Notes: generated by a model from the letters alone, not told the origin. A stretch of DNA of 64,000 bases from Clostridia bacterium (GCA_017510825.1 JAFWMA010000004.1:40987-104986); one strand, 5' to 3'. Shown: positions 31,119-50,507, numbered from the stretch's first letter. Made by a program: numbers and translations.

Positions 31119-31970
31119 TTACACATTCGGTCCCTTTATAAATTCTCCTGTTCCCTGGTTTGTGTAAAATTCTCTTTCAACAGTATCATATAAGCCAATT
31201 GTTCCCTCTTGACATTGTTTGTTGTTAATATCTGTTACAGCAGTAGTAGAATAGCATGGAATATAATAATGTTCTAATTTTTCTTCTTCAAATATTTTTG
31301 CATAAAAAATTCTCTGTTTAGTACTTGTTATAGTCCCAAAGTTATTATGTCCCTTAAACAAATAAATTGATAACATTTTTTCTTTAAAATCTAATATATA
31401 ATTGTTATTAGATATATTGTCAATGCATTGTAATCCATTTGAAATATAATATTCATGATACTGTGTGTCAAATGGTATTGTTGCTCCTTTTCTTTGATCA
31501 TTACTTATATATGCAACTAAACAGTTATTTCCATAGCTTCCTAATGCAAACCATCCTTTATAACCTCCTAACACACTTCCACACCAATTTATTGATGATG
31601 GATCATTATCTGTCATGGTTGCTCCAACACTCATTGCGGTATCTATTGTTGGTATAATTTTAGTATCAATAAATTGTGTTCCTGTACTTTCAATGTATTC
31701 TACCCTTTGATATTCACTTGGTAAATTAATAGTTGTTTCATCAATTAATCTGATTGCTTCTTCCATTTGTATTGTTTCTTTTTTAGTGGCATTTGCCATT
31801 GAGTTTGATGCATAAGTTGCTTTTTCTATTACCCCATTGTTACTTAATGCCAAATTTAACGTCACCCCGGCTAGTATTAGTAATACTATTATTGTTACAA
31901 CTAAAGCTACTAGGGTCATTCCAGCTTGTTGACATTGTTGTTGATTTTTTTTGCATCTTTTTTTTTCCAT
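31119..31970 (-). CDS. pilin-like family protein P1 (conserved N-terminal helix, variable C-terminus)
   Basis: ...CQQAG|MTLVALVVTIIVLLILAGVTLNLALSNNGVIEKATYASNSMANATK.... It is paralogous over its whole length to the 35200..36165 product (RVEYIESTGTQ..., ...IPCY.TT.V.D...). Confidence 0.5.
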   Translation of the reverse strand: MEKKRCKKNQQQCQQAGMTLVALVVTIIVLLILAGVTLNLALSNNGVIEKATYASNSMANATKKETIQMEEAIRLIDETTINLPSEYQRVEYIESTGTQFIDTKIIPTIDTAMSVGATMTDNDPSSINWCGSVLGGYKGWFALGSYGNNCLVAYISNDQRKGATIPFDTQYHEYYISNGLQCIDNISNNNYILDFKEKMLSIYLFKGHNNFGTITSTKQRIFYAKIFEEEKLEHYYIPCYSTTAVTDINNKQCQEGTIGLYDTVEREFYTNQGTGEFIKGPNV

Positions 31971-32131
31971 TGTTTTACTTTTCTCCTCTATGTTTTTTAT
32001 CTTTTTTCTTTCAGTAGATTTGATATTTTTATTATATGCATAAATTTACTTAAATTGTCAACGTTTTTTGCTTTTACTGGATTATTACATATATTTTATA
32101 CAATTAATTAAATACTTTGAAATTATTAGTT

Positions 32132-33524
32132 TAAGTATAATGCTAATCTAAATCCTATATTTCTAGCATACATTCCAGTTATAGTTTTTCCATTTATTTT
32201 AATTGAACATGCAGCAAAATTATTAGCTCCTATCTTCCCTGGGTAACTAAACGCTCCTCCGTCTAAAGCTCTTATATGATGTTTCAACCCATTCTCCTAA
32301 ATTACCTGCTAAATCATATATGTTTTTTGCTTTTGTTTGTTCAAAAGAACCTGTGTTTATAATGCCTGTTGTTTCTGAAAATGTATCATCACTAAAATTT
32401 CCCCAAGTTTCACATTTACTCTTAATCTGATCTAGATTCTTATCACCAGATTGTACTATCCATCCCATAACTCTGTCCCATGCTGGTCCAGTTAATAATG
32501 AACTATTAAGTTCTGGATTGAATTCTTTAGCTTTTTCCAGCGCATTATCATAATAAATGTAATTCCATAACATATTATCAACTAATGCTACATTTGAAAC
32601 TGTCCTACTACTTGTTGAAGGTTTACTAGCAGGTTTATTATTCACATATATTACTTCATACCTTCCTACGTAGAAACCTCCATTTTGTTGTATTTTTTCT
32701 CTGTATGCATCATCTTCTGAATAGTAATTTAGATTCGTAGTGGTAGTTGGTTTATTCTCATAGGAATCTAGTGCATATAAGCTTCTTACTACTAGTGTCT
32801 TCTTAACAGTGTCACTTGCTGTATTTACTTCTACTTGGTAACCACCATTGTATGTTGGCTCTATATTATTGTTTTCATAAGACATTCCACTAGCGTTAGC
32901 TAGACTTATTTCTTCTCCAATTGGGTCAATTAGCTTTATTTCTGTAATATTCTCTTCGCTACTTACTTTTAATCTAATCTTTTGGTTTTTATCTACTGGC
33001 ACCCAAACAAATTCGTTCCCGTCTCCATCTTGTATTACATATCCTGTATCTTTTGTTCCTTCTATATGTGTAAATCCATTTGGTAATGGAATATTTTCTT
33101 CTTTAACTGTTGTTCCAACTATTGAAAACTCTTCTATTTTTATTTTGCTTTCTTCTGATGTTGTAGTTTCGTCATTTAGATTTATTATAGTCCTAATTCC
33201 TTCATAATTTACAATTAAGTTTTCTCCCTCTACTGTTACACTTGAATCATTCAGTTCTTCCTCTAGCTTCTCAGCTAATGTGTTTCTATCCCATCCTTCT
33301 TTTTCTCCGTCAATTGATACTGCCATCCAAGCCATTTGTACAGTCTCTTGTACTGTTTTTTTGAACGAAACATTTGATGCTTCTTTCACTTTTTGTATAA
33401 CTCCGTTATTATTTAGTGCTAAACTAATTGTTACTCCGGCTAGTATTAGTAATACTATTATTGTAACAACAAGTGCAACAAGGGTAATTCCCTTTTCCCT
33501 CAAACTTTGACTTTTGTATTTCAT
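32132..33524 (-). CDS. pilin-like family protein P2 with a C-terminal FGE-sulfatase (SUMF1)-like domain, frameshifted near the C-terminus
   Basis: MKYKSQSLREKG|ITLVALVVTIIVLLILAGVTISLALNNNGVIQK.... The C-terminal NIYDLAGNLGEWVETSY matches the NxYGLYDMxGNVWEW block. The track ORF stops at 32247, but the +1 frame continues ALDGGAFSYPG...ARNIGFRLALYLN* (an RGGSW / GFRCA-like end) to about 32132. Confidence 0.5.
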
Positions 33525-33701
33525 TTTTATTTTTTCTCCTTTTTTTATAGTACGTCACTCTTTTCTTGCTTTTGGCTGTATATTAAATATAATTTCGATT
33601 ATTACACTATTAGATATAAGTTTTCTGTTTTTGTTTTATTTATGTTAAGCCCTCCGGTTTGTGTTTCTTTTTAGCTTGTTTTCCTATTATGTATTAGATT
33701 A

Positions 33702-48456: not shown

Positions 48457-48937
48457 TTTTTACTCCTTAAAAAATAAAATTAGCATTAGTAAATATTTTT
48501 AGACATTGTTATTATACCTCTAATATTTTTAAAATGCAATAAGCAATTTTTTATAGTATTATGCAATTTGTAGGTTTGTCAAACATATGACACACTTTAT
48601 TGTCATTACTGAGGTTGAAATACCTTATATGCTTTTTTCTTTTGCGCAAAAACGCCATTATTTTGATTTTTTTATTAAGGTGTTTATATCTTAATATGCG
48701 TATCTAAAAAATTTCAAAAAAAATAACACTAGACTTTTCAAAAAAATCTAATGTTATTTTTTATGCATCTCGCTTTAGTAGGTTGCATTACTTTTCTGTC
48801 ATTTTTCCTTTTTTGTTAAATCTAGAACCCTTAGCCCAAAAAATTGTTGCGGTATTTGTAATCATTTTGTGCATTAGGTTTATTTGTCGCTCCGATGTAG
48901 GATGCATAATTCTCATATTGTATTTTTGCATTTAAAT

Positions 48938-49138
48938 CTAATCCGTAGTTTTCATATAGTCTGTTTCTGTTTTGGTTACATTTGCCCAGGTGTTTGAGGC
49001 ATAGGTTGCTTTTTCTAGGATTCCGTTGCCTCCAAGTGCTAAATTTATTGTTACTCCTGCCAGAATTAGTAGAGTTATTATTGTGACAACTAAAGCCACT
49101 AGCGTTATTCCTGCTTGTTTTATGTATTTATTTTCCAT
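48938..49138 (-). CDS. pilin-like family protein P6, short (66 aa; conserved N-terminal module only)
   Basis: MENKYIKQAG|ITLVALVVTIITLLILAGVTINLALGGNGILEKATYASNTWANVTKTETDYMKTTD*. It stops where its paralogs begin their linker. Confidence 0.45.
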   Translation of the reverse strand: MENKYIKQAGITLVALVVTIITLLILAGVTINLALGGNGILEKATYASNTWANVTKTETDYMKTTD

Positions 49139-49232
49139 TTTTTCTCCTTAATGTTAATTAATTAAATAGGGACACTGTGGAATTTTTTCTGCACTCCACG
49201 GTGTCCCCGGTGACATTTCTTTATTGACAATT

Positions 49233-50507
49233 TTAATTTAAGGTTACTGTACCATCATTTGCAACACTTACACTAGACCATGGTAAAGATACTACAGCCC
49301 TCATAGGAAAATGAGCTTCGTTTGAGGTACCATCAGAAAATGCAAGGTTTTGTTCATAAAGGTAGCCATCAAAAATACACCTTATGTTGTAATATATTCG
49401 GTCACCTGGATAAGCGTATGTAACACGTGAAGCAAGCCAGCAAAACTGATAAGAACCAGGATATGCATCTGATTCATAAAACAATTCCTTGGCAATGTTA
49501 CTTGTACCAAATGTACCTAAATTAGTTAGCATTGTGGATTTTTCATCGTAATAGTCATAGAAACTGTCATAAAGTTTTAATGTACTAGCTGTTGTGCCAG
49601 CATCATTTGTTACTGGAATCCCATCTCCAACTATTTTTTCACTAAATGTTTCATCATTTATTGTTACTTCTCCTGTGCTTGTACCATATATTTTAGGATA
49701 TTTTTTATATTTTGAATTTGTTGTTACCAATTCCCCAAATGTTTCATTTTTTGTTGTGGCTCCTCCTATAAAGCTTTCATCCCAGTTGTAACTACTTCCG
49801 TTCATTGCTTCAGCCGCATTTTTAATATCCGTTAAATTTAGTGCATGAACTCTATCTGCCGTTATTCCAGCATCTGGGTTTATAAATAGTTTTGTCGCAA
49901 TTTCATTCAAATAGTATAAACTATTACTATATCCTCCATATCCTTTAAAAGATATTTGTTTATTTCCACTTGTTTGTTGGCTAACTATATTTACTCCATT
50001 ATCATCAGCACTTAATACATACCATTTTAAATTACCAATTTCTAAATTATTTTGGCTAAGTGTCTGTGATGACGCACCACCATTATTTGTATTCGGTATA
50101 CTTATTTGCATTGTTGTTGTTGCTGGCGTATATCCCACTTCTTGCAAGGTTGAATTTCCATTTATTGCAGCTATTTCAGTACTATGTACACTACCACTTT
50201 GCCCTCCGCTTCCAGAACCACCTGAGCCACCGGAACCTCCCGAGCCTCCAGAATTCCCTTGTCTATCTATAAATCCATCTGTTAACGTATCTACATCGCT
50301 TTCTATTTGTCCCATCATTGCTGTTTCATCTTTTGTTGCGTTCGCCCATGAGTTTGATGCGTATTGAGCCCTTCCCATTACTCCATTGTTCCCTAATGCC
50401 AAATTTATTGCTACTCCTGCTAAGATTAGTAATACAATAATTGTAACAACAAGTGCTACTAAAGTGATTCCATTTTCCTTCCAATTTTTTCTTCTTAAGT
50501 ATTTCAT
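49233..50507 (-). CDS. pilin-like family protein P7
   Basis: MKYLRRKNWKENG|ITLVALVVTIIVLLILAGVAINLALGNNGVMGRAQYASNSWANATKDETAMMGQIESDVDTL..., then a (GGS)n linker and a 300-aa C-terminal domain. Confidence 0.5.
   Translation of the reverse strand: MKYLRRKNWKENGITLVALVVTIIVLLILAGVAINLALGNNGVMGRAQYASNSWANATKDETAMMGQIESDVDTLTDGFIDRQGNSGGSGGSGGSGGSGSGGQSGSVHSTEIAAINGNSTLQEVGYTPATTTMQISIPNTNNGGASSQTLSQNNLEIGNLKWYVLSADDNGVNIVSQQTSGNKQISFKGYGGYSNSLYYLNEIATKLFINPDAGITADRVHALNLTDIKNAAEAMNGSSYNWDESFIGGATTKNETFGELVTTNSKYKKYPKIYGTSTGEVTINDETFSEKIVGDGIPVTNDAGTTASTLKLYDSFYDYYDEKSTMLTNLGTFGTSNIAKELFYESDAYPGSYQFCWLASRVTYAYPGDRIYYNIRCIFDGYLYEQNLAFSDGTSNEAHFPMRAVVSLPWSSVSVANDGTVTLN

Follow-up and report, generated by a model that had tools for sequence, protein, structure and literature searches.

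Within a 64,000-nucleotide (nt) stretch of DNA from a Clostridia bacterium (GCA_017510825.1 JAFWMA010000004.1:40987-104986; hereafter the window, with positions counted from its first letter), we analyzed seven reverse-strand open reading frames (ORFs), P1 to P7, whose products share a pilin-like N-terminus and carry C-terminal domains of several kinds. A preliminary description of this DNA had listed these ORFs, and all seven are present with the positions and strand it gave. Our analysis indicates that they are probably paralogous modular type IV pilins of a divergent type IV pilus (T4P) system, specific to an uncultured lineage of gut Clostridia with low guanine-cytosine (GC) content. The seven genes, with product lengths in amino acids (aa), are as follows.

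31119-31970, minus strand: P1, 283 aa; leader of 16 aa, helix G|MTLVAL... and, at the C-terminus, a homologue of the P4 module.
32247-33524 as an ORF, full extent 32126-33524, minus strand: P2, 425 aa; FGE-sulfatase / C-type-lectin-like module, frameshifted near its 3′ end.
33702-34979, minus strand: P3, 425 aa; weakly DUF6273-like C-terminal module.
35200-36165, minus strand: P4, 321 aa as an ORF and 308 aa as called elsewhere; long leader and ConA-like lectin module.
42195-43199, minus strand: P5, 334 aa; the helix is joined by a (GGS)n linker to a module of unknown fold whose C-terminal motif is DUF6273-like.
48800-49138 as a remnant, ORF 48938-49138, minus strand: P6, 66 aa with an intact N-terminal module; pseudogene.
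49233-50507, minus strand: P7, 424 aa; helix, long Gly/Ser linker and a confidently folded module of ~315 aa.

Each product opens with a K/R-rich leader ending in Gly, followed by ITLVALVVTIIVLLILAGV (7/7) and then by an amphipathic helix. The consensus of the segment after the Gly reads (I/M)TLVAL(V/I)VT(I/V)I(V/I/T)LL(I/V)LAGV, also written (I/M)TLVALVVTIIVLLILAGV, and the continuation NLAL.NNG...A.Y.SN.(W/M)AN.TK.E is present in all except P2 and P3, the P3 helix being the most divergent among the seven. An independent repeat finder returned a seven-copy family of 170 nt with 62-79% identity, lying exactly over the seven 5′ ends. Where residues are identical between paralogues, the same codon is used at only ~50% of them; with synonymous sites this far diverged, neither gene conversion nor recent duplication accounts for the identity of the helices, and purifying selection on the protein is indicated as what has kept the shared helix.

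As the ORFs are drawn, the leaders measure 9-53 aa. The long leader of P4 (36040-36165) has counterparts in P0133 and P0006, from other samples, and the three share a conserved pre-Gly leader, ...ARIT..TH...I.NNKK...QQ.G|ITL, of 40-55 residues; the other leaders span 6-12 residues (16 as drawn for P1). The P4-type leader may be type IVb-like in its length, may reflect a start that was called wrongly, or may be regulatory sequence conserved at the 5′ end. Promoter-like sites lie singly upstream of P4, P5 (at 43289-43260) and P7; the promoter scan overall did not rise above shuffled expectation, and these sites are only suggestive. Invertible promoters or phase switches were rejected, there being no inverted repeats of at least 40 nt within 28-52 kb. 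Scans of the window for tRNA genes and Rfam families gave no matches.

We compared the shared N-terminus with the features that define a type IV pilin. A positively charged leader with Gly at position -1 occurs in all seven products, and the Gly is invariant in a 21-sequence alignment (A1). Likewise, ~20 hydrophobic residues directly past the cleavage site are found in 7/7. AlphaFold2 models place helices at residues 8-38 and 43-82 of P7 (with low confidence there) and at residues 44-66 and 71-101 of P4 (with moderate to high confidence). Glu at position +5 is missing: the residue is Ala in 7/7 window genes and also in the operon-encoded short pilins considered below. When searched against the Pfam prepilin model N_methyl (PF07963; InterPro counterpart IPR012902), whose cut-off is 21.2 bits, P1-P7 all gave matches of 10.0-15.4 bits (P1, 14.9 bits), so that the search proposed in the preliminary description matched every paralogue, but none of them above the curated threshold. 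Across 68 lineage members, N_methyl reached E <= 0.001 in only five.

Over ~25 residues the module hardly varies from genome to genome, and a profile search with it recovered 31,288 cluster representatives at 50% identity (20,366 at E <= 1e-10) with lengths of 70-1836 aa. A search with P6 returned 171 proteins, most of them 70-81 aa long and consisting of the module only, such as MFKKEKG|ITLVALVVTIIVLLILAGVTISL...; some of these short homologues carry the NCBI name 'type II secretion system protein'. Moreover, P6 is 67% identical to the operon pilin P0004 over 88% of the P6 length. Together, the sub-threshold N_methyl matches and the operon pilin homologues support the earlier proposal that the module combines a type IV pilin-type signal with an alpha-1 helix in which Ala replaces Glu at +5. 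Within the library covered, literature searches on the motif strings yielded no paper describing them, and those on Glu5-less major pilins in Clostridia yielded nothing relevant.

The machinery to which this family belongs lies elsewhere. BLAST searches with every window ORF of 100 aa or more agree with Pfam scans that the window holds no PilB, PilT, PilC, PilD or PilM homologue, as had been noted for PilB, PilC and the prepilin peptidase. A survey of one genome per GTDB species found at least 437 relatives, nearly all in metagenome-assembled genomes (MAGs) of uncultured gut Clostridia from humans, rabbits, chickens, sheep, deer and mice; 79 loci were kept for gene-context analysis. Every short member in the 79 loci falls in a pil operon (14 distinct pil-operon loci), and the large members (300-900 aa) are located outside it. 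The link to filament machinery is thus found for the family, in these 14 loci, and not inside the window. As traced on two contigs, the operon encodes a 553-aa PilM/N-like protein, a PilO-like protein, a 151-aa protein, the short pilin and a PilD-like protein, followed 3′ of the last by two small minor-pilin-like proteins, PilB (T2SSE), PilT (T2SSE) and PilC (T2SSF). One minor-pilin-like protein of the operon (146 aa) is ComGF-like (E 3.4e-5). P0004, P0021 and 12 further operon pilins (70-158 aa) lie between the PilO-like and PilD-like genes, upstream of two T2SSE genes and a T2SSF gene. The ~55-residue N-terminus shared by the window genes is the same module as the 70-81 aa pilin inside the lineage's pil operon. 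As a separate observation, the PilO-like protein of one operon locus, L005 (8577-9419), ends in a tract of ~90 residues that is almost wholly Asn, with a few D, S or T.

The L005 operon appears to belong to the same genome as the window, on strong circumstantial evidence. Its pilin, P0004 (MBR3325162.1), is near MBR3324716.1, the product of P6, in accession order; P0004, P0128 (IKG14_03445) and P0152 report one and the same longest contig, of 211,341 bp; and one sample yielded both L005 and L001, the latter a copy of the window region, with matching GC fractions (0.269 for L005 against 0.272). In five genomes where both could be compared, the helices of the modular paralogues resemble the operon pilin of their own genome more closely than those of other genomes (0.88 versus 0.77 for alpha1N, 0.44 versus 0.24 for alpha1C), as expected if both pack into the same lattice. 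The preliminary description had suggested looking for pilB, pilC and a prepilin peptidase elsewhere in the genome: the first two apparently stand in an operon of the same MAG, and the third is represented by a PilD-like protein that lacks the canonical peptidase domain.

L005 10333-11154: PilD-like gene, with an equivalent in 13 other loci (L007, L008, L014, L016, L021, L043, L061, L064, L068, L071, L072, L080 and L083).

This protein keeps the N-terminal zinc-finger/methylase domain of A24 prepilin peptidases (A24_N_bact, E 7e-32), with CxxC...CxxC in 14/14, so that the domain with its four Cys is present; Peptidase_A24 (PF01478), which holds the two catalytic Asp, gave no match at E <= 0.1. 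We aligned the 14 proteins with two canonical A24 peptidases from annotated records. Eleven of the 14 retain the first catalytic Asp (it is gone in L016, L061 and L072), and the second, or GxGD, position is occupied by D in four, E in three, Q in three, S in two, N in one and G in one, one subclade having neither catalytic Asp. The GxGD Asp of prepilin peptidases has been described as universally conserved (PMC10191384). No ORF with a canonical peptidase domain was found in ~1.3 Mb of collected loci, nor were solved-structure relatives of the PilD-like protein found. Given that the protein has neither a detectable Peptidase_A24 domain nor the second catalytic Asp, cleavage at G|I is only putative.

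Next to the constant helix, the C-terminal modules vary widely. That they differ completely, as had been stated, is an overstatement, although the diversity otherwise holds: the P1 and P4 modules are homologous (36% identity, E 2e-31), and P3, P5 and P7 have weak DUF6273-like motifs in common. The P4 module has a concanavalin-A-like (LamG/pentraxin-type) beta-sandwich lectin fold. Some of its homologues (n = 441), in other bacteria, sit on canonical pilins (MKKNAFTLIELLAVIVILAIIALIA..., PF07963-positive, Glu5 present; GFTLIEL) and others on variant N-termini, e.g. GISLIVL and GITILAL; this occurrence on both canonical and variant pilin N-termini is direct evidence, from comparison, for functional equivalence between the ITLVAL module and a pilin moiety. 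The P7 module is likewise found on several different N-termini. For P2, the FGE-sulfatase-like assignment is supported at the level of the family, the product alone reaching only E 0.033 to Pfam FGE-sulfatase: the P2 family profile (A3) matched SUMF2, PorK/GldK, TvpA and FGE in the PDB (E 1e-5 to 5e-4), and Pfam FGE-sulfatase occurs in nine lineage modular pilins (best E 9e-9). P3 weakly matches DUF6273 (E 0.019) and has homologues in six other loci. P5 has no Pfam or NCBIfam match, bears the C-terminal motif YWLGTP...GLRPVIKV and gave a weak hhalign match to the P3 family. Profile searches of the PDB found no relatives for the P3 or P7 families, and Foldseek with the P7 model found nothing significant.

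Pfam assignments in the 68 modular lineage members, which reach 892 aa, comprise FGE-sulfatase (9), LRR_5 (5), Glug (4), Flg_new (4), DUF285 (3) and DUF6273 (3), together with Big_2, RCC1, SpaA, DUF4832/DUF4874 and one GH5 cellulase. These are typical surface, adhesin and enzyme domains. The C-terminal parts are interchangeable surface modules, and the arrangement that defines a modular pilin, namely a pilin moiety, a short linker and a domain not specific to pilus biology, is found here. We also considered a diversity-generating retroelement acting on the C-type-lectin-like end of P2 and rejected it: no repeat matching the P2 3′ end exists in 28-52 kb, and no reverse transcriptase was among the Pfam-scanned window ORFs.

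Two of the seven genes are damaged. At the P6 locus, tblastn detected three collinear fragments in two frames that match residues 12-75, 106-136 and 197-222 of the 287-aa P0152: the 66-aa ORF with its intact module comes first and two lectin-type module fragments in other frames follow. On this sequence evidence P6 is a decayed remnant of a longer P1/P4-type gene, and the decayed P0152-like fragments rule it out as a genuine short major pilin. The earlier listing of P6 as a 66-aa paralogue is therefore right about the N-terminal module and wrong about an intact protein (decayed gene, 48800-49138); the exact 66-aa product is recorded at NCBI as MBR3324716.1 (IKG14_01535). The P2 ORF stops at 32247; the remaining ~55 codons of the gene, which encode the true end of the FGE-like domain, ...ALDGGAFSYPGK...NIGFRLALYLN, are read in the +1 frame at 32126-32296. 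Since 17 contigs, among them several that come from separate samples, carry the identical truncated product of 425 aa, the lesion is real and not an assembly error.

Damage also extends to FtsX1, a neighboring permease gene on the minus strand, in which a frameshift separates an N-terminal piece of 69 aa (39775-39984) from the remaining 1041 aa (36675-39800); the split is called likewise in four other assemblies (L001-L004). P2, P6 and FtsX1 make three damaged genes within 18 kb. In another sample, P0002 is a 74-aa variant of P1 that is frameshifted directly after ...ANATKK at an A-rich run, which could mean either that the assembly is wrong there or that a pilin paralogue is switched on and off by strand slippage.

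If the seven genes are modular pilins, their products would insert into the membrane with the N-terminus in and the C-terminus out, and the leader would be removed past the invariant Gly. PilB, PilC and PilMNO may then polymerize the modular helix into the filament core beside the helix-only major pilin, and the grafted lectin or adhesin module would thereby be presented on the pilus for glycan or host binding. The module might stand at the tip, as proposed for Streptococcus sanguinis, or along the shaft, the latter being possible because the carrier essentially copies the whole major subunit. Several points weigh against the modular-pilin explanation. None of the seven products reaches the Pfam N_methyl threshold, and no NCBIfam pilin model matches convincingly. 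In known bacterial filaments, Glu5 neutralizes the N-terminal amine of the neighboring subunit (PMC10191384), and known systems lack it only in tip-capping subunits, e.g. GspK and S. sanguinis PilA; here it is absent from every pilin of the system, including the presumed helix-only major pilin. In addition, the operon's PilD-like protein has neither the Peptidase_A24 domain nor the canonical Asp pair, the window itself contains no machinery gene, and P2 and P6 are damaged. Accession order, a common longest contig and a common sample, and not a closed genome, are the grounds for placing the operon in the same genome, and that modules of 300-900 aa fit into a thin helix-only filament is something we infer.

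The window paralogues are interleaved with two units of an ATP-binding cassette (ABC) ATPase plus a giant FtsX/MacB_PCD permease, with a condensation-domain protein and with a TMEM164-family protein. This interleaving with two MacB/FtsX ABC modules was correctly observed in the preliminary description, which took the arrangement to point to an uncharacterized surface display or fiber system; on that view, pilin-like proteins and transporters would form one new, ABC-driven system. Pilin-like genes do adjoin FtsX-type ABC genes at three places in the MAG, two of them in the window. The third is at L096 1120-5500, where an 802-aa ABC-FtsX fusion and a 91-aa ORF immediately precede P0128, whose helix is a variant (KG|ITLVVLVITIVILGLISIP) and whose module is of the P7 type. 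BLAST had detected no giant-permease homologues near 52 modular-pilin loci in other genomes; given the third adjacency, the synteny test was repeated with FtsX-domain phmmer queries. An FtsX-like ORF occurred in 4 of the 52 large-paralogue loci (744 kb), 2-6 kb off with unrelated genes between and never adjacent, and in 0/14 pil-operon loci. Conversely, pilin modules flanked none of four FtsX2 relatives (69-80% identical) on metagenome contigs, where 0.7-3 kb of flank could be searched; a TMEM164-family gene was on 4/4 of these contigs, and an ABC2 ATPase gene was within only one of these short contigs. The conserved neighborhood across related genomes that would mark a dedicated MacB/FtsX substrate was thus not found, and the claimed link is not supported. 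Separate, if weak, promoter-like sites before P4, P5 and P7, the frameshift in FtsX1 itself and the family's own dedicated T4P machinery also argue against an ABC-driven system, which we regard as very improbable. The pilin-FtsX association is confined to this genome and can most simply be put down to chance or to clustering of surface-protein genes; the ABC transporters, the condensation-domain gene and the TMEM164-family gene are probably neighbors and not parts of the system. For annotation, it follows that such pilin genes are not to be read as partners of adjacent MacB-type transporters.

Equally hard to credit is the notion that the N-termini are ordinary Sec signal anchors that resemble pilins in composition only. 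Every database pilin model stays sub-threshold on them, and both Glu5 and Phe1 are absent; still, near-invariance over many genomes and thousands of clusters goes far beyond what an anchor needs, the Gly at -1 is invariant, and the short homologues are the pilin gene of T4P operons with a ComGF-like neighbor. A subtler alternative holds that the pilin-type N-terminus serves only as a class III-type targeting and anchoring signal, leading to membrane or surface display or to a short pseudopilus or bindosome-like assembly with no long pilus, much as in archaeal sugar-binding proteins with pilin-like signal peptides. The suggestion, already made in the preliminary description, of ectodomain proteins with one common anchor module comes close to the modular-pilin explanation. 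A signal used only for targeting and anchoring would accommodate modules that are numerous and bulky and include enzymes (the members of up to 892 aa and the GH5 cellulase), more than 20,000 module-bearing clusters, a number far above expectation for structural minor pilins, and paralogues scattered outside the pil operon with their own promoter-like sites. With no canonical catalytic Asp pair in the PilD-like protein, the anchor might also remain uncleaved, and archaea provide precedents of non-pilin proteins with class III signals (cited in PMC10191384, ref. 43). However, conservation reaches into the amphipathic alpha1C and tracks the genome's major pilin, which is needless for a mere anchor, the family is tied to a PilB/PilT/PilC operon, and the same effector module is borne by canonical full pilins elsewhere; we thus consider an anchor without a long pilus unlikely.

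A more far-reaching form of the modular-pilin explanation, to be held only tentatively and more doubtful than not, is that this Clostridia lineage has a subtype of type IV filament in which all pilins, the helix-only major subunit of 70-81 aa among them, lack Glu5, maturation is altered through loss of the supposedly universal catalytic Asp pair from the operon's peptidase homologue, and a major-pilin-like helix is the universal display carrier. In such a subtype, maturation might be carried out by another enzyme or by a new active site, or cleavage might not take place at all. Lectins, adhesins and even glycoside hydrolases, drawn from a very large repertoire under rapid shuffling, would decorate the filament, perhaps over its whole length, and so make the pilus a scaffold for display.

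The remainder of the window contains further genes of note. The condensation-domain protein mentioned above (39981-41288, minus strand) lies between ABC1 and FtsX1, is of the nonribosomal peptide synthetase type (E 7e-54) with an HHxxxDG-like motif, and stands alone; a 427-aa ORF at 51825-53108 (minus strand) has an HxxxDG-like motif, SHAIADGRG, and no Pfam match. A separate SipW/TasA-type cluster occupies 21090-26549 (minus strand), with N-termini unlike those of the pilin paralogues.

21090-21710, minus strand: SipW-like signal peptidase.
21732-23807, minus strand: 691-aa Listeria-Bacteroides-repeat protein.
23825-24544, 24550-25170 and 26004-26549, minus strand: three small TasA/camelysin-like secreted proteins.
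25276-25752, minus strand: second SipW-like ORF, without the Ser motif.

This cluster, not far from the pilin paralogues, looks like a second, unrelated fiber or biofilm-matrix system. Positions 1-17400 of the window carry housekeeping genes of chromosomal type: pta, ackA, rho, pflB and the gene for its activase, and genes for an amino-acid kinase, a papain-like/Big_3 surface protein, a tyrosine recombinase and a DpaB-like flavoprotein. With a GC content of ~27%, this part fits chromosomal DNA of a low-GC Clostridia genome and not a mobile element. Dipicolinate synthase genes, DpaB-like in the window and DpaA at L005, indicate that the host is probably spore-forming.

The modular pilin concept (Raynaud et al. 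2021, PMC8179133) holds that an effector grafted onto a pilin is displayed on the filament by that carrier. The window proteins have the same architecture as the modular pilins of S. sanguinis, PilB with a vWA module and PilC with a ConA-like lectin (PMC8179133; Shahin et al. 2023, PMC9934059): a class III-type leader ending in Gly, a hydrophobic alpha-1, a short flexible linker and a grafted non-pilin module. The effector modules are diverse and swappable in both cases, and the P1/P4 module shares the ConA-like lectin superfamily fold of the S. sanguinis PilC module. Unlike the S. sanguinis type, the carrier here is a helix of ~55-70 residues with no globular pilin domain, and the paralogues are scattered outside the pil locus, with far more of them per genome and far more members in the family. 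Position 5 is Ala instead of Glu and residue 1 is Ile, and the IPR012902/PF07963 signature that defines modular pilins is therefore missed.

Beyond modular pilins, further filament systems offer partial parallels. The type IVa systems of Clostridium perfringens and Clostridioides difficile are built from PilA, PilB, PilC, PilD, PilM/N/O and PilT. The lineage described here resembles clostridial T4P in having PilB, PilT, PilC, PilM/N/O-like proteins, a PilD-like gene beside the pilin and minor pilins; it differs in a major pilin of 70-81 aa that is helix-only and without Phe1 and Glu5, and in a PilD-like protein that keeps A24_N_bact with no recognizable peptidase domain and with D, E, Q, S, N or G at the GxGD Asp position. 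Very short mature subunits, essentially the alpha-1 helix only, are also known from Geobacter PilA-N and the Flp/Tad pilins, to which the short helix-only subunits here are similar. As far as is known, those pilins keep an acidic +5 residue, unlike the pilins here; Flp/Tad pilins use a different machinery set (Tad), and Geobacter has a split PilA-N/PilA-C pair. Archaeal proteins with class III signals, including bindosome-type sugar-binding proteins, also combine a pilin-type signal without a conserved Glu5 with many functionally diverse extracellular proteins (PMC10191384, ref. 43). The present family differs from them in its bacterial lineage and its bacterial-type PilB/PilT/PilC/PilMNO operon, and cleavage by an archaeal-type peptidase is not implied.

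Collectively, what is new relative to known modular pilins is a non-canonical, helix-only, Glu5-less carrier in a large and poorly annotated family. The concept of modular pilins is recent, and their cataloguing has relied on the canonical N_methyl signature, below which this family falls; since it nonetheless exceeds 20,000 clusters at 50% identity, a very large share of the pilin-borne adhesins of gut Clostridia has probably been overlooked. If displayed on pili, the modules would be candidate glycan- and host- or mucus-binding determinants of uncultured gut commensals of humans, rabbits, poultry and ruminants. Set beside the known systems, the family challenges two supposed constants of bacterial type IV filaments, namely that the major pilin has Glu5 and that the prepilin peptidase has its two catalytic Asp.

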